This document shows positions 3,855-19,300 of a stretch of 64,000 nucleotides of DNA, piece after piece. The notes under the pieces are model-generated. The model was not told the DNA's origin. It searched no databases and saw only the letters and a program-made list of their open reading frames with translations. Position 1 is the stretch's first letter; every line of letters starts with the position of its first letter. Both the position numbers and the translations under genes were made by a program. This DNA is from Cyanophora paradoxa CCMP329 (Eukaryota > Plantae > Glaucophyta): assembly GCA_004431415.1 (NCBI GenBank), contig QPMI01000631.1, positions 19,560 through 83,559 of the forward strand. Direction: 5' to 3'.

Positions 3855-5505
3855 TAGTAGTAGTATCGCCGCATACGTATACTACAGTACCCAGCCTGGG
3901 TATGCCACCGGTACCGGCGGCCCACCGGCGGGGGCCACCGCACGGCGGCGGGCGGCGGGCGCTGCAGCCTGCAGCCTGCAGCCTGCAGGCTGACCGCACC
4001 GTGGCACTGTATGACAGTGTATGTACATGTCACAGCTGCAGTGTCATTGATGTCAAAGCTTACTAGACTACTACCAGACTGTACCAGTACGCTTTGCAAC
4101 TTATTTGGATTCATTCAAAACTCCCGAGGCCCCAACCGCGGCCGCAGTGCCGCCCGGCCGCAGTGCTGCCGCACTACCGTAGTATACGTATACTATGATA
4201 CTCGGATCCGGTCCATCATCCGGATCCGGAGGTATCTGTATATATCCTATATATTTATATATTCTATTCGGAAATTCCCGTTCAATTGCGCAATTTTAAT
4301 AAATCGCGTGACGACGGTGACGTCGATCGATCGCGATCGGCATGCACATGCAGTCACTGAGTCGACGAAACTTGAAACTCCGGATCCGGTCCGGATCCGA
4401 CGTCGACGTGATTCCTTGTCATGACTCATGAGTCATGACTCATGATCTCAGTGCATCTCACTATACTGCAATTGACCCCGGTGACCGGCGCCGTTATTGC
4501 AATTGACGTCATGATCACGCATGATCACGGTCGTCGATTGGCCAAGTGCGATCGGCGTGGTACCCCCAAAGGAGGGGCCCCAGGGCCCAGACTCTCCGGG
4601 CCTCCGGCCCTGAGGCTCCGGGTCCAGGGAGTCCGGGACTCCGGGTCCTCCGGGATCCGATGATCCGGCGCGGGCCGGGCCGCGCGGCGCCGCCGGTGCG
4701 GGCACTGCGGGGCCGCGGCCAACCGTTGAACAATTGCAACCATCCCAGCGATATCGATTTCTTGGAGCTGTACAGCCTGTACGGTGCTGTACGGAGCCTG
4801 TACCATGTACTACCGTCCTGTACCAGGCTGTACCAGCCTGTACGTACCGGTAGCCGCGGCCGCCGCCGCGCGCGGAGCTCGAGCCCAAGTGGACACTGGA
4901 CACGCAACTCGCGGCGAGTGCGCCGGCATGGCACTGCGGCATGCGCAGCGCATCACTCAGCACTGGTAGTCACTGCAGCTGGCTAGCGGAGCCTAGATCT
5001 AGAGCTCGTCAAGTTGGCGCGCGGCGCGCGCAGGCCTGCTTCTGCGAATACTAGACAGTGTCGCAAGACTCAGATATAGAGCTCGCGATATCCGCTGCCC
5101 GCGGCCGGCCCTATAGCCGCCGCGAAATGGTGCCGTGGAATTGGTACAACTTGACGCGAGCTTGCACGCACTAATCTTCACTGTGCGGGCAGGTGTGGGT
5201 TTTGTAGTCTGTCGAGGACGCACGCAGCGTGTCCGAGGACTGCATTAGAGCATTAATCAGCAGTCTTATATATATATGCCTGTGGTACCGGTGCGCATGC
5301 TCGGCGATGAGCTTTGCAAGTTTGTGTTTCGGATTTCGCTATATATCTATATGTATAAGTGCTAACGTTTTAACCGCGCGCGTTGCTTGGAATAATGGGT
5401 CGTGGCCAAGATGTAAACACACACACACACATATATATATACATGCATATGGACCAGTAGTATTTCGCGCCGCGCCTCACATTGTTGGCGTTCGGCGCGC
5501 AGGCC

Positions 5506-8500
5506 ATGCATATAGACGCAGAACTTCCCACGGACTCCGAATTCGAAGACGCTTCTACGGCCGGGAACGGGAACATCGGCGCCGACAGCCCGTTGGTCCT
5601 GACGACGCATGTTTCATTCAGGCGGGCGGCGCCAACAACGGCGGGCGCATCGAGATCCGGCCGGAAATCTTCGAATTCGGTCGGGAAGTGGCTCAAGGAC
5701 ACGCGGTCACTTGCCGACGAGGTCGAACGGAGCAGGAGTGCAGCGCGAGAAGCAGGCTTAGGCGCGTTCACGCCTGGCGGCCTTCGCGATCCGCGAAGCT
5801 TCGACCCGTACACGCCGGGGGCGCTCTCCGGATCCGCAGCCTCCAGCGCGCGGCGGATCGCTGCGTTCAACGTGCTCTCGGCCGCCTCCAGCGCATTAGC
5901 AGCCGAATCTTTCGTCCCAGACCTGCGCGACGATCGCGAGGCGCAGGCAACATCGGCGGCCGGTATCTTCTATGAGGACATGGACACCAGCAGACCGCCG
6001 CCGGCGCCTGGAGATCCGATCAGCGGCCCTGCATCGCCAGCTGCGCACCGCGTCTCCGTCGTGTCCGTGCAGGAGGCCGTCCTGCTGCAGTTGGCTGGCC
6101 GTTCGCGCCATGGCTCGATGGACGCCGGTGTGGTCTCCGCCCCTCAGACCGAGGCCCGCGCGGCCACTTTGACCGGAAAGCTCAAGACGAGCAAGTCCAC
6201 CGGCGCCTACCTCGGGAAGGAGGTCGTCGGCCGCGGCGAGCGCGCCGAGGGCGAGGTCGTCTCGCGGACGTTCGAGGAGGAATGGGACGAGGCGAGAGGC
6301 GCCTTCAGGGGCCGCCTGGGCTCTGGAAGCGCGCTGCTGGAGCTCGCCGCTAGGAGCAGGGGCTCGCCCGCCCTGCCGCCAGCTCTGAACAGCCGCGACG
6401 ACTTGCGAGACTCCCCTGCAGCCGATCGCGACGACGCTTTGAGCGAACGGTGCGATATATTTATATCTCGTTAATATTGGAGTTAATTATATAACGCTTA
6501 ATATTTATGCTTGCAAATTGACGTCGACATCTACATCTACATTTGCTGATTTCGCTCGAGAAGCAGGTCGGGGTCCTGGAAGAGGAGCCCTCGCCCTCTT
6601 GCGCTGAGGCCCGGCCAAGTGCAGCCCTCGCCGACCGCGGCGCGGTCTGCAAGGAAGTGGAGGACGCTCACGCGATCCCGCTTCGTGGGCTGGTGGCACG
6701 ACATGTCTTTACGGTCGAAGCAGTGTTCTACCATCTTCATGGCACAAACCGTGCTCCTTGGTGCGCTTTTCTTGTTCAGAGCCTTGCAAAATTGCTCTAT
6801 TTAATCGCCCAATGCATATGCTCACCGCCACGCGCGCTTTATCAGTCGTAATTGGCCTTCTGATATTTGCTTTCTTCAACTGGAGGTGAATCTTCGCTTG
6901 ATGCGGTGTTCTCGCAACTGGCTCCAAATCCTCTAACCGCTCCTCATTTTCATTGCTTCCACATCCAGGGTGCCAGAAATTCAGGTGCAGGAACAGGCGA
7001 GGCAGGAGCTGTCTCACTTCAAGACCGCCGTAGCCGTGGCGATGCGGGATGTGCTTCTTCTCGAGAACTTTGACTTGCATTTCCACACTCTCGTTTTTTG
7101 ACGAGCGCACTTGCATGTGCAGGCTCGTGATCCGGCGCCGGCTGACTTTGAAAATGCAATCGACGCGACGTTATTGGAGCTGCTGGAAGGATACGCTGCT
7201 GTATACAGGATACCCAACTTGCTGTCTACAGATCGACTGCCGCAGCTGGCATCATCGATGTTGGTTGAGGACGCGAAACGTAAGCTTTTCACGCTTCGAA
7301 TGGATTTTCGCAGCTTTTTTTTGACACCTTGAATCTACGTCGTTTGTGCGCGCAGTCAAACGAAACGTCGAGATCGCGAATGATGTTCTGCGGGCACTGT
7401 TGTCTCAAATCGCTGAGGGAGCGACGCGGGCGGAGAGCAGGTGGAGCGCGGTCCGTGAAGAGATGTTGGTGTTGGCCACCATGCACAGCAGCGCCTCAGG
7501 CTCGCTCCTCGTGGTGCGGCATTTCGAAAACATGTTAAATTTTCCTATAGCTACCGCCTGTGCCTTAAAATATGTTTTCCTATAGCTACCGCCTGTGCGT
7601 TGTTGGTCATGAGTTCCTCCTGCCGCAGATTCGAGGCACGCGCACTCTGGCTGCAGCGGATTCAACGCGGCGGGCGTTGTTCGTTGCAATCTGCATCGCC
7701 TTGCCCGTGCTCCTTGTTGTCAGCGGGGTGATGGCTTTCTTGCTTGGCCACGCGCTAGTCAAACCCATTCGGCGCCTGCAAGGTACTTTATAAATTAGCC
7801 TATTATCGTGCTTGAGCTCACTAAACGCTCTTCGCGGCCCGCTGCCGGAGCTCGCGAAGTCCAACTAGACGTCGTGCTCTTTCGCAAATGCGCAGCTACC
7901 GTCCAAGCGCTCGCTGGCTTTGACGGCACCCAAGGAAGATCTTACGAGTATCATTCTAAGGTCCGCGTCGGATCCGTGGGGCCACTTGATAGCGCCTCCA
8001 CATATATATGCTGGGTTGCCATGGCCGACGTGTGCGCGCGCAGCTTCCCGGGACCGGAACACGCGCGGTCGTCGAATCTGGAGACGAGATCGGGCGCCTG
8101 GCGTTTGCCTTCAATGGACTCCTGGACCGCGTCGACGAGGTAGCGAAATCGATCTTCCCTTACAGGGTGTGGCGGCATCTAACCATCTCGTGATGACCAG
8201 GCTTGGAAGGACATTCGAGGCTTGTTAAAGAAGGCGGCGATCCAAGAATTCCGCGCTCGGCAGATCATGGACACGGCAAACGACGCGGTGGTGCGCATTT
8301 ATACAACTTCTGCGAAATACCAATCGAACACTTACACGGTCGCACGCATGCGCATCCGGTCATAGATTCTAATCAACGGAGATTCAGTCATACAGTCCCT
8401 CAATGGGACCTTCACCGATGTCTTTGGCTATACGGTGCGCTATTGTCCGCGATCGCAGTACTATAGCTAGTCAGTGCATCCGCGGATCGACGGTCTTACT

Positions 8501-11500
8501 CCGTCGATCATCCCAAACGCAGGCAGACGACCTGGTTGGGAAGAAGATCAACGTGATCATGCCGCGCCGCTATGCCGACCACCACGGTGCCTTTATCTTC
8601 TTCGATGCGCTCACTTCGTTTAATTCGCTTATTCCTAACTCGCTGCTGTTTTCACAGAGGGCTACGTGAGGCGGTACCTGGACACGGGGGAGAGCCACAT
8701 CCTGGGGACCATCCGCGAGGTGGAGGCGCTCCACAAGGACGGCCACGAGTTTCCCGTCGAGCTCTCCATGTCGTGCGCCCGGCCCTTTCGTTGACAAGTC
8801 CCGATGCGGAACGAGCAAAGCTTAAGCTTACGCTGCCGCGCAGGGAGATGATCATCGGCAGCGAGCACTTGTGCGTTGGCTTCGGCCGCGGTCTGGATTC
8901 AGATCCGGTCGCATTCACACGCCGCGAATTCCGAACCTGATCATGACGCACCCGCCCGCGTCCGCCCGCCCGCGCGCAGCTTCGTCGGCATGCTGCGGAA
9001 CATATCGGCGCGCAAGGACATGGAGGCGGCCCTGAGGAAGCAGCGCTCGAAGACGCTCGCGCTGCTTCGGAACATGCTGCCGCCCCGCATCGCGCAGCGG
9101 CTGATGGACTCGCCCAACGAGAGCATCGCCGACCGCTGCGAGAACGTCACCATCCTCTTCGCGGATCTCGGTGCGTTCGCCCTATAGCTAACATCGTGTC
9201 GCGTTGGCTTTTGACGCTAGCGCCGTGCGCTTCAGCGGGCTTCACGCCGCTGGCGGGGAGCATGGACGCCGGCGCGCTCGTCTCGCTCCTGAACGCGATC
9301 TTCTCCGAGTTCGACGTCCTGGCTGCCCAGTACCAGGTCGAGAAGATCAAGACCATCGTGCGCCGCCTCTTTGATTTCCTACAATGGCATCAGAGTTCTG
9401 CACTACAGCTGCACACGTGCACGAAGCGAATTGAAGTCGGCTCGGGGGACGCCATCGGCGCAGGGGGACGCCATCATGTGCGCGGCGGGGCTGCGGGACA
9501 CGACGGAGCGCCCGATGAGCGCGGACGGCGGCGCTGACGTCGACGGCGGGAGCGGCCTGGAGCGGATGGCGGTGCGTTGAACCTCAATCTGCCACGGCCG
9601 CCGACGCGCGCGCGCGCTTCTCGGGTTCTGACGAATGCGTACGTATACCGCGGCGCAGCGCATGGCGCTGGAAATGCACGGCGTCGTCGAACAGCGGAAG
9701 GACGCGCAAGGGCGACCGCTGAAGCTTCGCATCGGCATCCACCACGGCGTTGTCGTTGCCGGGTGCGCTGAATTGGACGCGCCGTTTCAGGCCTAGGCCC
9801 TTCTGAGGAGCGAGCCCGGCTTATGCATATGGTCCTCCGGATCCTTGCAGGGTGATTGGCAAGAAGAAGTTCTTGTTCGACCTGGTCCGTACACGATTTG
9901 CTCACATATGCATATATGAATTGTCTATTTGCTCGGAGTGTAGCCTCTGAGCTGATCGTGCGGCCCTCTTGCAATGTTCAGTGGGGCGACGACGTGAACA
10001 TCGCGAGGTATTATTATATACATTTATTATTACCGGCGCCGGCCGCTGCCTCTGGCGTCGCGGAATGTTTACGTTGCGCTCACGCTGACTTCGCGGTAAC
10101 AGCCGCCTGGAGAGCTCGGGCGTGCCGGGAAAGACGCAGGTCAGCAAAGAAGTCTACGACCGCCTGAAGGACTCGCGGCTCTTCACGTTCGGTTCGCGCG
10201 GACTCTGACTTTGAATGAACGAATTTGAGCTAATCGGCGACTCGTCATCGACAGAGGAGCGCGGTGCCATTCCCATCAAAGGCAAAGGAGGCGAGCGCGT
10301 TTGTTGCAAGTGCAAACGCTTCCATGCAGTCTAATTTGCTGACCGAGTCGCGCAGATATGCAGGCGTACCTTCTCTCGACGGGACCGGCTTTCCGCCGGC
10401 TGAAATCGCCTGTTTCGGTGAATGGAGGTCTGGGCCGCTCGCCCAGGTGAGCCAATTGATTCAGTTTGCGTCGCAAGGCTGAGCGTCGTTTAACGAATTA
10501 TTCGCAGCATGTCTGCCCAGCTAACGAGCATAAACAAGTCGATCGTCTCAGCCTGGCAGGTCGGTGATGTCAAATTTGTGATTCTCCCCACGAGCTGCGT
10601 TCCGACGGAGTCCGCCGGTGCCGCAGGAGCTTCGCAGCGTCGCCATGAACAGCGACAACGCTGCGTTCTCGGAGGGGCTCCCGTCGCCCCGCGCGGCGGC
10701 CAAGCCCACGGCATCGCGGCGCCACAAGGCGCGCCGGGAGACGATCCTGCGGCTCGACCTGGCGAGCATCTCGGTGTTCGACCTGAGGGAGGAGGACGGC
10801 GCCGCCCTCTTCCGCCGCCTCGTCGAGGACCTCGAGGTGCATTATAAGAACCAAAGCCATTATTTCAATATCGTTCGTGTTGTTGTTGTATGTATCGGAA
10901 TATCTTAATCGCGCCGCCAGCTGCACAAGACGCTCGGGCTGGACCTGAACATGGTCGAGGAGCTCGCGGCGCAGGCCCTTGCCGACCACCGCGACGTGCC
11001 GTACCACAACCGGCTCCACGCCATGGACGTCTCGCTCACGACGCACTCGCTGCTGAAGAGCTGCAAGGCTTTGCCGTCTGGATCTGCCGCCGGCACCGCG
11101 GCCGACGCGGAGCAGCACCTGCAGCTGCCCAACGCCGTTGCTGTCGTCCCCGAGTTCCAGTTGACGGAGATCGACCGCCTCGCGCTTATGCTCGCCGCCG
11201 TGTGCCACGGTGCGCCGCGCCGATACCCATGGCCATCGATTGCTGCGCGCCAGTCGGGGGAAACAAACGTTGACGGGATCCACCGCAGACCTCGACCACC
11301 CGGGCCTCCTCGCAAAGCGCCCCGACCCGCAGACCCCGACCTCCTACGACGCCGCCGCGAAGCTCGAGAAGTCGTTCCGGGACCGCCCGCAGAGCCGCAA
11401 GTCGCTCGAGGCGCACCACGCGAACCGCTGCGTCGAGCTGCTCGAGAGGCACCTCCGGGCCATCGCCCCCTCCCTCATCGACTCGGAGATCCTCCACATC

Positions 11501-12649
11501 CAAAAGGCGCGAGCGAAACCGTTTCGCAACATAAGGATATATACAAGTTCTGAACGCGCGCGCGCGCGCGGCCGCGCAGATCGCGCTGGAGGGCATCTTA
11601 GACACGAACATGGAGATCCACGAGGTGAATTCGCACACAACAATCACGCTAGCGCTGGTCACCGGGTTCCGGCGTTAACGTTGAAATTCGCCTCCTCAGG
11701 ACTTCATGAGCCGCTTCAAGCAGTTCTTCGCGCTCGAATCACCGCGGAAACACGTGCACGCGCACGCGGGCGCCGGCGCCGGCGCCGGGACCCCTGGACG
11801 GGCGGCCATAGCCAGCCACAGGGCCGAGCTCGAGCTCGACGCCGGGCACGACGCGCATGTGCACGCGGGCGAGGACCAGAGTTTGAGCGACACTGGCGTC
11901 GTGGCCGCGGGTGCCATCATGCAGCACTTGAACGTGGACGCCGGATCGACCCTCGAGCTCGAGCTCGAGGCCGGCCGCGCGTACGGCCACGTGGACGAGG
12001 CGGAGCGCCAGTACGCCGGCCGCCAGCTCCTCTGCGGTGCCATCCTCAAGGTCGCCGATCTCGGGTGCGCTCTTTAGTATAATTTCTTCGGATGAGATAT
12101 TGAAGCTTAAGCTTTCTGCATTTCTTTCTTTCCAACGCCAACGCCGTCCCGCCCCGGCAGGAACGCGGCGCGGCCGTTCGCGGACGCGCGGCGCTGGGCG
12201 CGGCGCATCGTGCTGGAGCTGGGGCTCGCGTCCGCGGCCGGGACGGGCGGCGAGGCGACGACCCTGTCCCCCGACGCCGACCTCTCCGCAGAGGGCCCTC
12301 TGGCGGACGAAGCGCTCGCCGGGCCGCAGGGTAATAACTATTTATCTTCCATCTCTATAAGATTTACCTACCATTTGCCCAATAATAAACGTTCGAATGA
12401 AAGTTTGAATTCTTCTTGTGCAGACTCGTTCCTCCGCGGAGTGGCCTTACCCCTCTTCGAAACCGTGGCCCGCATCCTCCCCGAGGTACGCGTACTTACT
12501 TTAACACGCGGCTCTAATTTGATTCATTCAGCCTTTTTATATGTGACGCCGCGCTCGCTCGCTCGCAGGGCGTACGCCCGATGCTCGAGCGCGCGACAGT
12601 GAACGCAGACGCGTGGCGCTCCCTCAAAGGAGAGCCGAATTCGAATTGA
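5506..12649 (+). CDS. Membrane HAMP-PAS-class III adenylyl cyclase fused to a C-terminal class I cyclic-nucleotide phosphodiesterase (multi-exon)
   Basis: TM plus HAMP (LVKPIRRLQ...DEIGRLAFAFNGLLDR); PAS (INVIMPRRYADHH/EGYVRRYLDTGESHILGTIREVEALHKDGHEFPVELS); cyclase (VTILFADL, EKIKTI/GDAIM, LRIGIHHG, KKFLFDL/WGDDVNIA/SRLES, IKGKG); PDE (PYHNRLHAMDV, CH/DLDHPG, LEAHH, ILKVADLG/N, QDSFL). Splice phases are continuous from cyclase to PDE. The start codon is uncertain. Confidence 0.88.
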
Positions 12650-13161
12650 GAATTGAGTCGTCAATCCTTCCTTTCTATATATATGTATATATGAGATTTA
12701 GACGAACAGTAGTCGTCAATCCTTCGAATTCCTTTCTATGATTTAGACGTAGGCTTCCGTCCACTGGCAGTTCTTTCGTATCCGCAGCAATCGCATTTAA
12801 GTATATATATATATGCATGTTTTTTGCGGCATGCATCTATATGCATCAATATCGATGATGTTCATGATGTTAGGATGTAGTTTCAGTGAGCGGCAGATTT
12901 CCATCGTATATATCTGAAGCTTAAAAGCTTGTTCACGCGTACGCTGTCGGCTGTCGTACTATATGTAACTAATTATAAATATCTTAAGTTTCCATTTTCT
13001 CTAGATCTTCCGAGTTCTCTTCACGGTTCACTTCAAGACTTCGTCTGTGGCACATCGATAAACATAGCCTCGTGCTTGCATGGCTTGTAATATTTTTCTA
13101 TCGGGCCTGTTATTCGTTCCGCATCTCAGTGCTTGTATAGATATCCGAAAATTGGCGTCTC

Positions 13162-16100
13162 TTTTTTTTTTGGTGAATTACCGGCCACAGTCTCTAGACA
13201 CCAGCACTGCGGGGGCTGCCCAGGGGGCATAGAGACAAAAAAGCAAAATAACTAGCAGACCGCGCCCGGCCCAGTGCAAGTGCAGCAAGTGCGGGCCGCG
13301 CGCGGAGGTGCAAGGGGGGGTACTTGTACACATTGCAGGGTACTTGGGGGAGGGGGGGGGGGGGGCAGAGATCTAGAGGCAGGGCGGGCGGCCGGGCGAG
13401 GCGGCCGGGGTGGCGAGGCGGCCGGGTGGGGTGGCGAGGCGGACGGTTGGGGTGGCGAGGCGGGCGGATGGGGTGGCGAGGCGGGCGGCGGCACCAGGCT
13501 GGCGGGCAGGCGAGGGCGGCGGGGGGCGGGGAAGCGGGAGGACAGACAGGTGGCGCCGGGCCCTGCGCATAGCCTGCACATACGCAGAGCCGAGGCGTCA
13601 GCTCGCCCCGGACAGCGGCCGTGCGGGGGCGGGGCCCAGCGGGGGCGGCCGGGCCAGGTGCGCAGCAGCAGCGGCGGAGCGAACCTGGAGTCGACGACGC
13701 TGAGGCAGCCGGCAGGGCGGCGGGTGGGGAAGCGGGAGGACAGACAGGTTGCGCCGGGCCCTGCGCATAGCCTGCACATACGCAGAGCCGAGGCGTCAGC
13801 TCGCCCCAGACAGCGGCCGTGCGGGGGCGGGGCCCAGCGGGGGCGGCCGGGCCAGGTGCACAGCAGCAGCGGCGGAGCGAACCTGGAGTCGACGACGCTG
13901 AGGCAGCCGGCAGGGCGGCGGGCGGGGAAGCGGGCGGAGGGGCAGGTGGCGCCGGGCCCTGCGCATAGCCTGCACATACGCAGAGCCGAGGCGTCAGCTC
14001 GCCCCGGACAGCGGCCGTGCGGGGGCGGGGCCCAGCGGCGGCGGTCGGGTGAGATGCGCAGCAGCAGCCTGGCAGCGGCGGGGCGAACCTGGAGCCGACG
14101 AAGCTGAGGCAGCCGGCGGGGAAGCCGGCGGAGCGACAGGTGACCAGGCACTGCGCACAGCCTGCGCAGGGCCAAGGCGTCAGCTCGCGCCAGACAGCGG
14201 TGGCGGGGCCAAGCGGTGGCGGCAGGGTGAGGTGCGCAGCATTAGCGGCGCGCCGACCAGCGGCGGCGGCCGGGCGAGATGCACAGCAGCAGCGGCGGGG
14301 CGAACCTGGAGTCGACGAAGCTGAGGCAGCCGGCGGGGCGGCGGGCGCGGAAGCGGGCGGAGCGGCAGGTGGCGCCGGGCCCTGCGCATAGCATGCGCAG
14401 ATCTACAGCCGCGGCCGAGGCGCGCGTCAGCTCGCGGCGTGTCCTGGAGAGCAGCGCGAATACTTGCGAAGCCGTCATCATCTGCTACGGATCGCTGGCC
14501 GCGGGTCAACATACGCGCATGCATATGTGCGCGTGGCGCCGAGCTAGCGCGCTGGCCGTACTTGCTCACCGGCATGACAGCTCGTCGTAACTGAACTTGA
14601 GCTTGAACCGGCCGCGGAGTCCGTCAGAAACCGAGAGCGTAGGCGGCTCGAGGACGCAGCCGGAAGCGCACCGGAACGCGGCGTCGCTGGCGCCTTCATC
14701 CGTCCGCGCCCCCGGCGCGGACGTGGTCACACGCCCCCGGACGTGGTCACGGACGCTTCGGCTGCTTGAAGTGCTTCCCGCATCATTGCGATCAACATCG
14801 CTTGCTCTTATGCGCCATGGCGGCCTACGCTGTTGTACCCAGCATGCGGCGTCCATTCCCCCCTGCTCCATTCCCCCCAAGCGGCGTACGGGTACTGCAA
14901 CACGATTTCGGCGCCAAACTCTCAGGAGCGCTTTTTTCCGGCGCCCGGTACAACAGGTACTTGAGGCGGTCTAGCGCGCCGCACGCCGCTTCTCGAGCCC
15001 GGGCATGTATGACAAAGTTTGTAGAGCGCATCGAGAGCAATCATGAGCACGTGGTCCGGCGCGTATAGCAACAGCAGGTGAGGCGCGACCTCGACATGTT
15101 TGCGCAGCCCCGCCCCTGCATTTTTTTCCGCCGCTCGCAGCGGCTACGATGCGATCACACCTATACGAGAGCGCATGCAAAGAATCGCATCTTACAAAAA
15201 TTGCTAACACAGAAAGTACGCCGCACCAACTCACCAGGGGAGCAAGGGAGGGGGTACCCCCCCTTGCAACTAAGACAAGAGCACGAAGAAAGATAAGACA
15301 AAGAGCCAAAATCGACAATAAGAAAGGAAAGACACAGAGCTCGAGACAGATCGATTGCGAGAAGAGACGATAAATCGAGCAGATCTAGGGACAGAGGATA
15401 ACTGACACGAAGAAGAGCCAGAGCTAGAGGATAACTGACACGAAGAAGAGCCAGAGCTAGAGATACCATCAATATTAGAAGGAATTACATCACTAAGAAG
15501 CGGGGGACAAAATTGAGAAAGATAAATAACAGGAAGAAGACAAGTAAGAGGAACAACAAGACGACATGGAGGCGGAGGCGAAGCAGGACGATGCGAAAGG
15601 GCAGAGCTACGGCACGAGGTCGAGGAGGACACAGGAGGCGGAGCAGGCGGATCAAGAGCGTCTCATTTGGCCGCCACGCGTATATATACGTACCTAGGCC
15701 TGGGCACCCAGCGTGGTGCCGGTACGCTTTCCGTGCGCATGCTCAAGCACAGCGTTGAGATCGAAGATCATCGAGCATCGCGAGCCTCAAAAAAAAGAGT
15801 GCTGGGAGCTCCCCACTCCGATCCAGCTGCAGATCTAGAGGGGCCGGGGGCCGGGGCTCGCAATCGGGATACGCGGCCGGATCATGATCAGCGGCTTCAT
15901 ACGCGGCCGGATCCGGAGGCGACGGTTATTTTCAATTGCAAATGAATTTATATATATAATTAACTTAGAAAAATCGACGTCGACATGCAGAGGCTGTGTC
16001 TTTCCTTTCTTATTGTCGATTTTGGCTCTTTGTCTTATCTTTCTTCGTGCTCTTGTCTTAGTTATTTTGCTTTTTTGTCTCTATGCCCCCTGGGCAGCCC

Positions 16101-16193
16101 CCGCAGTGCTGGTGTCTAGAGACTGTGGCCGGTAATTCACCAAAAAAAAAAAATGCAGAGGCTGTGGCCGGTAATTCACCAAAAAAAAAAAAA
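13162..16193. mobile_element. Nested repeat: two inverted copies of an about 160-bp poly(A)-ended element, the left one split by a 2-kb insertion
   Basis: 15994-16153 is the reverse complement of 13162-13254 joined to 15268-15337. AACTA is duplicated at the break (13250-13254 and 15268-15272). An extra partial 3' copy lies at 16154-16193. Confidence 0.7.
13529..14400. repeat. Tandem repeat, 198-bp unit, about 4.5 progressively degenerate copies
   Basis: The unit starting GGGAAGCGGGAGGACAGACAGGT recurs at about 13529, 13727 and 13925, then degenerates. It is preceded by about 21-bp GGGGTGGCGAGGCGG repeats. Confidence 0.85.
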
Positions 16194-16335
16194 GACATGC
16201 ATGCACACCACCGGGGGGGGGGGGGGGGGGCTTCATCACGAGCGGGGTACTGAACTCTCGTTGTCTGGCGACAGTGCCGCGCGGCACGTATACGTATGCC
16301 GCGACTGTAGCGTGCAGCACGTGAGCGAGATATCG

Positions 16336-19300
16336 ATGACTATGCCGGTGGAGCTCGAAGCGCTCCTTTCGCCGTGCCCGATTGGCGAGGACGGCGCGCT
16401 CGCGGAGTCCGATCCCGCGCATCCTTTCGACGTGCGCGTCGTGGCGGCCGTGTGCGAAGGCGATCCGGGCGAGCCCGCCACGCCTGCGCACCGCGCGGTG
16501 CTCGCCGGCCGCAGCGCCTACTTCCGGGCCATGCTGGGCGGCGGCTGGCGCGAGTCATCGGGCGCCGGGGATGTCCGCGTGTGCGGCTGGAGCCCCGCCG
16601 CCCTCCGCGCCGTCGTCCGCTGGGCGTACGCGGGCGACCCGGGCGCGCTCCCCGCCGGGGCCGACGAGCTGGCCGAACTCTGCCGCGCCGAGGACTTCTT
16701 CGGCCTGCCGGGCTTCACCGAGGCGCTGGAGGCGCGGGCGCTCCGCTCCACGCCGCCCGCCGCCGCGTGCCGCCTCTGGCGCACCGCGGAGGACGCGGGG
16801 CACGAGGCGGTGGCGGGCCTGGCGCGCCGCGCCCTCCTGCGCGCCGCCGACGAGGCGCCGGGCTGCGCCGCGCTCGGCGCGCTCCCCGCCCGCCTCGCCG
16901 CCTCCGTCCTCTCCGACCCCTCCGCCCGCCTCCCCTCCGAGGCCGCCGCCGCCCGCCTCGCCGCCCGCTGGCGCGTCCTCTAATTTCCCGTACGCTTCGT
17001 CGCCCTTTTATCTGACTCGGTACCCCTCCGCAGGTGCCTCGCGGCGCCCCCCGACGTTCGCGCGGCAGGGGCCGCCCTCCTCTGGCCCGCTGTTCGCGTA
17101 CCCCTCCTCTCCCCCGCGGACCTCGCCGGTACCCCCTCCCCTCCCGCGAGCACCCCGCGGCGCCCCTTGCAGCTGCGTCCAACTCATGTACCCGCCGTCT
17201 TTCAGACTGCGACATCTCGAGGGGTCTACCCCCCGCCACCCTCGCCTCCGCCCTTTCCGCCCTCCGCCGGGCCACGAACGCGGTCGCCGCGGATTCCGTA
17301 ACACCCTTCGCTTCCAACCCCCGCCTCGGCCCCTCCTCCGAGGTCCGAGGGCGACCCATGCGCCGGGGTACCACAAGCTCGCCTCACTTTCGGCGCAGTC
17401 GTACAGCCTCAGGGGCCTCCGGCACGTCCCGGGCCCCGCCCTCGCGTCCCTCTTCGAATCCGGGCGGGACCGCTTGCCTTCGCTGACCGAGGTGGGTTCG
17501 AGCGAGCCCGCCCGACCGCCCCCGCGTCGCCCGCTCACGTATCCCCCCCCCCCCCCCCCGCCTCCAGCTGGATCTGTCCGGGTACCCCTCGTCCCTCCCG
17601 CAGTCTATCGGCCCTAGCTCGAGACCCGCCTTCCTCAGCTGCGCGCTGCTGGACGGGGAATCGCTGGTCGCGATCTGCGGCGCCCTCGCCCGCCGGGCCG
17701 CTCCGCTCCGCCGCCTCGACCTCTCCGGGTGCCCCCAGGTGCGCGTACCCCTCCCCAATCGCGTACCCCCCAGCCCGGCTCCTTCGACCTTCCAACGCAG
17801 CTCCACGCGGCGGCCATCGGGCACGCGCTCCTCAGCCTCTCCTCCCTCCAGGCTCGCCCGCCCGCCCGCCCGCCCGCCCGCCCGCCTGATTCGATCCGCG
17901 CTCGCCTGATTTGATCTGATTCGGCCGCTTCGCCCCGCCCCGCAGGACCTCGCGATAGACGACTGCCCCATCGCCGCGTGCGCTCATCTGATCTGATCCG
18001 TCTGATCTGAGCTGAACTGATCTGATCTAATCGCAGGCCCCTCCTCTCCCCCTACGAGCGTCGCCGCGGGTCCCTCCTCCGCCTCTCCGCCCGCCGCGCC
18101 GACGTACCCCCCAAGGCGGCCGCCAAGCGCCCCCTGGTCCGCTCCGCTGGGTACCGCGATTTCTCCCCCTCCCCCGGCCTTCGACTGGGGGTACCGCGAA
18201 GGTGGCGGGCCTCCTCTCGGCCGCTGGTACCCGTCTGGCCGCGCTCGACCTCCGGGAGTGGCGTACCCCCCTCCTGGAGGAAGACGCGGCGGCCCTTGCG
18301 GAGCGCCTTCGATCGGGTACCCTCCGCGAGCTCGACCTCTCCGGGGTACCCTGTACCCCTCTTCCCCTTTCACCTTCCCCCTCCCCGCCTCTGACCGGGG
18401 GTACAGGCCTGGCATGAGCAGACGGAGGCGGATCCAGGGGGGGATGCGGCCGGGGGGGCGGCGGCGGCCGCTGCCCCTTTATGTGCGGGCCTGCGGGGCG
18501 CCCCCTCTCTGACCACCCTCCGCCTCGGCCACTGCCCCTTCGTCTCCGATGACCTGGCGCGCCCCGTACCCCCCCGCTTCTTCCCCCCCTCCCCGCACGC
18601 CCTCCGGCGCTCACGCGCCCCTCCGTCCGCAGGTCCGCGCGGCGCTGCGCGCATCCCCCCTGCGCGAGCTGTCCCTGCGGGGTACGCCGATCTCCGACGC
18701 GGCGTTCGCGGACGCACCCCCGTCCTCGCTCTCGGGCCTCGAGGCGCTCGACCTCCGCGAGACGGGCATCGAGGGGTGCATCCTTTCCCTGTACCCCCCT
18801 TCGCCCGCGTCGCTTTTCCGAGTACCCCCCGCCGCCGCGCAGGACCACGTGGCTCCCCGGGTGCCGCTCCCTTCGGAGCCTGAACGTGCGCGGCTGCAGA
18901 GGCTTCAGGCCGCCCGGTCCCTCCTGGCCAGGAGACGCCAGCCCCCTCCTCGAGGAGCTCAAGGCCGGCTGGGGCATCTCCGACGTGCACCTGTGCGTCC
19001 GAAAGAACGCCGTACCCCCCCCCCCGCTCGCTCGTCCATCTCGTGATTCAAATCGGCGCCCGGCGGGCAGGGCGAGCGCGCCGCCGCTGCGGGCGCTCTC
19101 CCTGGGGCTGGGTACGAGCGCGACGGACTCGGGACTCGTACCCCTCGTCCGCCGCTCGGGGCGCCGCCTCCGCGCCCTCCGCCTGTGCCCTTCCCCCCCC
19201 CCCCCCCCACCACCCCCCCACACCCCACACCCCTTTCCCCCCCCTAAACAGCTTCGCAGGTCGTTCGCGCGGCTCAGCGGCCGCGGCCTGCGGGCGGTGG

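Follow-up and report, generated by a model that had tools for sequence, protein, structure and literature searches.

A glaucophyte gene predicted to join a FixL-type PAS sensor, an adenylyl cyclase and a remodelled phosphodiesterase

Can a single polypeptide both make and degrade cyclic AMP (cAMP), and what would control it? The question is raised by a gene in a stretch of 64,000 nucleotides (nt) of the glaucophyte alga Cyanophora paradoxa CCMP329 (contig QPMI01000631.1, positions 19,560 to 83,559 of the forward strand; hereafter the window), which was originally predicted to encode a sensor-gated adenylyl cyclase fused to a phosphodiesterase (PDE). The reading we favor, with a probability of about 0.5, is that the product forms a homodimer in a membrane, that O2 bound at the heme of a PAS domain would act through a long helix on the cyclase, and that the tethered PDE would drain cAMP slowly or act as a brake that reads it. 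The gene and its exons are placed in the window as follows.

5506 to 12649, forward strand: whole gene, 32 coding exons, 1515 amino acids (aa); matched by the public model P0001 from the end of exon 10 through exon 32, apart from exon 22
5506-6449, 6567-6760, 6846-6885, 6969-7050, 7123-7279, 7356-7513, 7629-7782, 7896-7960, forward strand: exons 1-8
8044-8139, 8201-8290, 8366-8434, 8523-8586, 8658-8772, 8844-8870, 8980-9170, 9236-9357, forward strand: exons 9-16
9464-9571, 9659-9762, 9851-9884, 9982-10007, 10103-10191, 10255-10290, 10356-10446, 10508-10559, forward strand: exons 17-24
10627-10836, 10921-11209, 11289-11506, 11580-11624, 11700-12064, 12161-12330, 12424-12485, 12569-12649, forward strand: exons 25-32

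Joining the 32 exons, in a three-frame reading with GT/GC-AG sites, produced a single open frame of 1515 aa with its lone stop at 12647-12649. The 31 introns (29 GT-AG, two GC-AG) are 61-117 nt in size, and 13 of them begin with GTGCG. Retention would introduce an in-frame stop in 22 of the 31 and a frameshift in eight more, intron 30 being the sole exception. Splice sites were scored with a leave-one-out matrix and ranked among 1115 donor and 335 acceptor decoys from within the gene; for the introns leading from the cyclase to the PDE (21-25), donors fell at percentiles 0.89-1.00 and acceptors at 0.75-0.95, and the weakest sites of the gene, the donor of intron 9 (0.63) and the acceptor of intron 10 (0.42), both lie between the HAMP and PAS domains. 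A search with exon 26 retrieved the public C. paradoxa model P0001 (851 aa) and a paralog, P0002. P0001 is equivalent to residues 653-1515 minus the 12-residue exon 22, with Pfam matches to Guanylate_cyc (2.3e-48), PDEase_I (1e-27) and PAS_9 (1.3e-10), the cyclase occupying its residues 151-325 and the PDE 470-832. Because exon 22 carries a conserved Lys motif at the end of the cyclase, which is also found in the paralogs, we consider the splicing originally proposed, which includes it, better than that of the public model. The 1515-aa frame, canonical introns and public model match uphold the proposal of one gene with membrane helices, HAMP, PAS, cyclase and PDE whose exons are predicted to splice in frame, and every splice junction and motif quoted in its support is present. 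Taken together, these comparisons indicate that the cyclase-PDE fusion within one predicted gene is real.

Several further features of the gene were observed. An acceptor-like site at 5495-5508, three bases ahead of the proposed start codon, suggests an intron in the 5' untranslated region or an extra upstream exon. If intron 23 (10447-10507) were retained, a TGA at 10448-10450 would follow directly after the cyclase, giving a possible cyclase-only isoform. Intron 6 contains a 27-nt direct repeat (7540-7601), and the end of intron 16 duplicates, by eye, the first bases of exon 17 (9445-9476). Four RNA sequencing runs, chosen by guess and compared with 5300-12800, yielded pieces of 24-31 nt and no splice joints among the matches listed, which is not evidence either way.

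9130 to 10380, forward strand: class III adenylyl cyclase, with Asp814, Asp858, Lys854, Asp937, Asn944, Arg948, Arg916 and Lys985

The cyclase carries a complete catalytic set. It has the residues originally claimed for it, namely the metal-binding Asp814 and Asp858, the adenine-selecting Lys854 and Asp937, and Asn944 and Arg948, which we take to act on the transition state; it also has Lys985, presumably a phosphate-binding residue, which sits in exon 22 and is therefore skipped by the public model and kept in the paralogs. Judged by these residues, the domain is an adenylyl-type cyclase with a full active site. In class III cyclases, as is established, two halves make up the active site of a homodimer; one chain here bears both residue sets and would thus supply both halves of such a site. 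The fold model of P0001 is confident for each domain (mean predicted local distance difference test score, pLDDT, 77.5), and its top Foldseek matches were to soluble guanylyl cyclase, paired over the PAS-helix-cyclase portion across about 395 columns.

10381 to 10740, forward strand: cyclase-to-PDE linker of about 75 aa (exons 23-25); low model confidence, last part conserved in P0002
10741 to 12620, forward strand: remodelled class I PDE, with His1135, His1139, His1202, Asp1203, His1206, Glu1243, His1246, Thr1284, Asp1410, Asn1413, Glu1431, Gln1468 and Phe1471 kept

The statement that the protein both makes and degrades cAMP could be supported only in part. The cyclase residues and the metal and acid motifs of the PDE speak for it, but three PDE sites are changed and two loops are rebuilt, and from the sequence we place both activities in this copy at about even odds. 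The three sites, at which the Asn of the H-loop has become Thr, the Asp of the T-D pair Asn and the Gln of the M-loop Ala, are conserved in all six intact comparators; the same changes are seen in P0002. The H-loop is a longer, unrelated stretch without its Asn, and past Glu1431 the M-loop motif is missing. The domain retains 25 of 37 columns that are invariant in six intact PDEs, against a background identity of 22% (binomial 6e-9); in a leave-one-out comparison each intact PDE retained 37 of 38-47 columns. PDE identity to the protein of a second glaucophyte, Gloeochaete wittrockiana, is 28% here versus 39-41% for the paralogs, while cyclase identity to the same protein is 48% here versus 43-47%; the fall in the PDE but not in the cyclase argues for a speed-up specific to the PDE. 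In the PDE tree, the P0001/P0002 pair has a stem of 1.55 and tips of 0.13 and 0.10, and a long stem with short tips suggests remodelling followed by renewed conservation rather than ongoing decay. We conclude that the domain likely binds metal and cyclic nucleotide, that its turnover is likely weak or altered, and that it is probably not an ordinary PDE.

The alternative that survives best, although we regard it as rather unlikely, is a fully bifunctional switch, in which synthesis and breakdown would both proceed at ordinary strength and be balanced by the sensor; this amounts to the original prediction with an O2 sensor added. It is consistent with the retention of all four zinc ligands (His, His, Asp, Asp), the acid His, the His, Glu, His and Thr of the magnesium shell, the purine-contacting Gln and Phe, and Asn1413 and Glu1431; in what we take to be PDE4D numbering, the kept residues include the equivalents of His204, Glu230, His233, Thr271, Asn321, Glu339, Gln369 and Phe372. 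The PDE is also 82% identical to that of P0002 over 312 core columns, and its model folds as a PDE (helical, mostly above pLDDT 85 outside insertions; Foldseek match to 7d7p at E 5.5e-11 and a template modelling score of 0.73 by target length). In addition, the PDE of the streptophyte protein CAPE, whose metal ligands are intact, is active (PMC5159850, in excerpt). However, 12 of the 37 invariant columns are lost, the three altered sites among them, the PDEase_I score is 98 bits compared with 191-233 for intact family members, and the sister protein P0138 has lost its PDE active site (8 of 37 columns), demonstrating that decay of the domain occurs in the family.

8267 to 9019, forward strand: FixL-type PAS domain, with His704 (8583-8585), Arg710, His718, Ile719, Arg724 (8714-8716) and Leu740
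9005 to 9110, forward strand: long helix (coiled coil or signalling helix) from PAS to cyclase; helix 109-132 of P0001 in the fold model, weak HNOBA match (6e-4)

What signal could such a cyclase receive? The idea of a sensor-gated switch held insofar as the sensor arm is present, and the identity of the PAS domain adds a name for the likely signal. The best matches among solved structures were to FixL (Sinorhizobium meliloti first, E 1.8e-23) and then to DosP, both of which are heme-based O2 sensors. The alignment with FixL runs ungapped over 108 residues and places His704 on the proximal heme ligand of the F helix (His194/His200). Arg710, His718, Ile719, Arg724 and Leu740 are the equivalents of Arg206, His214, Ile215, Arg220 and Leu236 of the Bradyrhizobium japonicum protein, as counted on the 1dp6 chain, so that the distal Arg and a hydrophobic distal pocket accompany the F-helix His, as expected of a FixL-type heme-PAS domain. 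The labels Arg220, which we take to be the distal arginine of FixL, and His214 are used as we presume them to be numbered; His200, Arg206, Ile215 and Leu236 are named in PMC10765370 (in excerpt). The heme-ligand His is retained in all six glaucophyte PAS domains aligned. We consider the domain to be of FixL type and, as these residues suggest, likely heme-binding and O2-sensing, with O2 as the likely gate. As a separate observation, proteins of the P0011 cluster, which has a member from the diatom Conticribra, carry eight PAS repeats followed by an adenylyl-type cyclase; the last repeat has the FixL heme His and distal Arg, and the same motif is visible by eye in several others, pointing to a possible multi-heme O2-sensing cyclase in diatoms.

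5506 to 6700, forward strand: N-terminal part of about 360 aa, rich in Ala, Ser, Arg and Pro; likely a disordered cytoplasmic segment, unmatched to any family, with a tentative start codon
6721 to 6885, forward strand: membrane helix 1 (exons 2-3), by hydropathy; aligned to the corresponding region of P0052, 0 of 500 shuffles
6969 to 7673, forward strand: predicted non-cytoplasmic region of about 150 aa, short and diverged
7674 to 7757, forward strand: membrane helix 2, by hydropathy
7758 to 8139, forward strand: HAMP domain (exons 7-9); Pfam HAMP 1.3e-5 on exon 9, aligned to the HAMP of P0052

Upstream of the PAS domain, hydropathy analysis revealed two hydrophobic stretches, at about residues 367-397 and 537-572. 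The exons of the first helix, and those of the second helix and HAMP, each align with paralog P0052, and neither score was reached in 500 shuffles. The P0052 model spans the first helix through the PDE, and the models of P0002 and P0060 start within HAMP. The region between the helices is about twice as long in P0052, where it is Cache-like (P0052 160-600, 0.97-0.98 to Cache/HAMP clusters). Exons 5-6, which encode the predicted outside region here, had no Pfam match, nor did exons 1-2 below E 0.1, and the N-terminus showed no similarity to that of P0052 (score reached in 366 of 500 shuffles).

This arm gives room to a second alternative, namely that the PAS domain lacks heme or that the gate is something other than O2. 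The cyclase would then be controlled by way of the outside domain and HAMP, with the PAS acting as a dimerization relay. The helix-sensor-helix-HAMP arrangement is present, with its Cache-like counterpart in P0052, and 40% of PAS domains in the FixL cluster lack the His, some eukaryotic members having changed function (PMC10468136). We nevertheless find this explanation improbable. The His, distal Arg and pocket residues are all kept here, the PAS domain is nearly unchanged in P0002 whereas the remainder of the protein diverges, the outside domain is short and diverged, and the Gloeochaete protein keeps its PAS together with a different, multi-helix membrane part.

In the O2-gated reading that we prefer, the protein would sit in the membrane as a homodimer, and binding or release of O2 at the PAS heme would shift the long helix below it, which in turn would open or close the cyclase dimer. 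The heme-PAS-helix stack of FixL and the PAS-coiled-coil-cyclase stack of soluble guanylyl cyclase are both models for such gating, and control by O2 could run in either direction. A second input, from outside, may come through the membrane-HAMP arm. Local cAMP would be limited or read by the tethered PDE, acting as a slow drain or a cAMP-binding feedback module and not as a full-strength off switch.

Several points weigh against this proposal. The packing of the domains is not predicted by the fold model (predicted template modelling score 0.53). P0001 begins at the PAS, so the membrane-HAMP arm is linked to it by the present model and the paralogs, across the two weakest splice sites of the gene. 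The F-helix His makes heme likely but not certain; Met stands at the equivalent of Ile238, the third residue of the distal pocket, and the distal Arg is missing from paralog P0052. The PDE may be fully active, as it retains every metal ligand, the acid His and the purine clamp of Gln and Phe, and the effect of losing the three altered sites was not found in the literature searched, their importance resting on the six comparators and on general knowledge of the family.

Relatives of the gene were examined to place it in context. Among 153 proteins obtained in a representative search, six have the cyclase followed by the PDE (P0001, P0002, P0052, P0060, P0081 and P0061), which is a minimum count. 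All six are glaucophyte by name or cluster, the first five being from Cyanophora. P0154, a cluster mate of P0061, is a Gloeochaete wittrockiana transcriptome protein (PAS 288-399, cyclase 442-622, PDE 710-947), so the fusion exists as one protein derived from mRNA in a second glaucophyte. The PDEs of P0052, P0060, P0081 and P0154 look intact by sequence, and these proteins are the better candidates for true make-and-break enzymes. In a quick cyclase tree of 78 rows, which contained neither CAPE nor diatom GC/PDE sequences, five Cyanophora rows formed a starred group (98), and Gloeochaete P0154, P0138 and a cyanobacterial group were on open forks; this tree supports neither monophyly of the family nor a cyanobacterial origin. 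A plastid-derived origin was considered but is not claimed. Two side observations concern individual members. P0138, a seventh Cyanophora gene, encodes a PAS and a cyclase, behind which lies the remnant of a PDE without metal ligands, making it a pseudo-PDE sister of the present gene. The public model of P0002 appears to be mis-spliced: the C-terminal third of its cyclase is absent, as are five residues where the PDE metal motif lies, and both gaps fall at exon borders of the present gene.

The remaining alternative, that the fusion is a modelling artefact or rarely made, with separate transcripts or a protein ended after the cyclase by retained intron 23, we hold to be very improbable: the stop in that intron is followed by Met codons at 10509 and 10646, and public models of this kind are AUGUSTUS predictions trained on RNA sequencing and not complementary DNA (PMC6704402, in excerpt), but the intron 23 donor is strong (percentile 0.999), only about 60 nt separate the stop from the next Met, the end of the linker is conserved in P0002, and five other glaucophyte proteins, one from a transcriptome (P0154), have the same fusion.

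The wider form of the O2-gated reading is more tentative. It is conceivable that these proteins represent an undescribed glaucophyte family of O2-gated cAMP switches and the first cyclase under heme-PAS control in a eukaryote with plastids, the PDE of the present gene being a feedback module that binds metal and cAMP; as part of the same tentative view, one genome may display a path from an intact PDE through a remodelled PDE to a dead one. Such a natural series would offer a handle on the purpose of a tethered PDE. Little is known of direct O2 sensing in algae, and among lineages with primary plastids the glaucophytes have been studied least. A FixL-type heme domain on a cyclase would provide a testable link from O2 to cAMP in a swimming photosynthetic cell, in which O2 tracks light, and the soluble PAS-cyclase part could act as a genetically encoded O2-to-cAMP converter.

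The neighborhood downstream of the gene contains two further features. At 13162-16151 in the window, perfect 93-nt inverted repeats 2.8 kb apart surround a 198-nt tandem array, and a second perfect inverted pair of 70 nt (15268-16063) lies in the same element. Situated close behind the cyclase-PDE gene, this is likely a non-autonomous DNA transposon of nested structure. At 16120-16980 on the forward strand, a BTB/POZ domain exon (1.4e-8) is followed by frames that resemble leucine-rich repeats by eye.

How does the protein compare with known systems? Fusions of a cyclase to a PDE are already known from CAPE and the diatom GC/PDE; what stands out here is the FixL-type sensor and the series from intact to dead PDE. 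The original prediction had taken the reversed order, cyclase before PDE, as the novelty, and this does not hold. Cyclase-first order occurs in the unrelated P0177, and is thus not unique to glaucophytes. P0177 (596 aa, on a 14.5 kb contig) has an N-terminal hydrophobic stretch, a guanylyl-like cyclase and then a PDE; no close viral relative of it was found. Among the 120 proteins listed of 737, it and the query carried both families, and PDE matches were absent from all 80 loci fetched; the word-based fusion searches missed diatom GC/PDEs that are visible in the Atlas, where P0081 is most like a cluster of 130 proteins, mostly from diatoms, that combine the two families (0.94). Diatom GC/PDE also has its cyclase before its PDE. 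The Seminavis robusta protein combines a class III cyclase and a class I PDE with two membrane helices N-terminal to both, a pairing that was regarded as diatom-only (PMC4726125, in excerpt). The present gene resembles it in joining the same two catalytic families in one chain behind two helices. It differs in that the diatom cyclase is predicted to be guanylyl, whereas Lys854 and Asp937 stand here in place of guanine-selecting residues, and no HAMP or heme-PAS is described there.

Within the literature searched, which mostly left subscription journals outside, we found no glaucophyte cyclase-PDE, no algal heme-PAS cyclase and no oxygen-sensor version of a make-and-break fusion in print. FixL-like heme proteins of Chlamydomonas are in print. 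The main text of the genome paper, PMC6704402, has no mention of 'cyclase' or 'phosphodiesterase'.

The likeness to FixL and DosP lies in the PAS sequence, F-helix His, distal Arg, pocket residues and the helix to the output domain; the bacterial outputs are a histidine kinase or a cyclic di-GMP EAL domain, whereas here domains for cAMP synthesis and breakdown are predicted in a eukaryotic alga. Soluble guanylyl cyclase, in which heme is held by an H-NOX domain and senses nitric oxide, shares the stack of PAS, coiled coil and cyclase and is the best structural match, but it is a heterodimer, makes cGMP and has no PDE. Heme-gated cAMP synthesis in a protist, predicted here, has a parallel in the O2-sensing adenylyl cyclases of trypanosomatids, which are soluble, use a globin sensor and have no PDE domain (PMC7719234, in excerpt). 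CAPE, as described in excerpts of PMC5159850 and PMC8115329, starts with its PDE and ends with its cyclase, the two helices lying between them, and both activities are shown; it is confined to streptophytes, nearly all with motile sperm, and has no PAS. Both are membrane proteins with two helices in which a class III adenylyl cyclase is combined with a class I PDE, but, as the original prediction correctly held in setting the gene apart from CAPE, domain order and membrane topology differ: the cyclase of the present gene precedes the PDE, and both helices precede the PAS. The glaucophyte family adds a third layout of the cyclase-PDE fusion to those of CAPE and the diatom GC/PDE.

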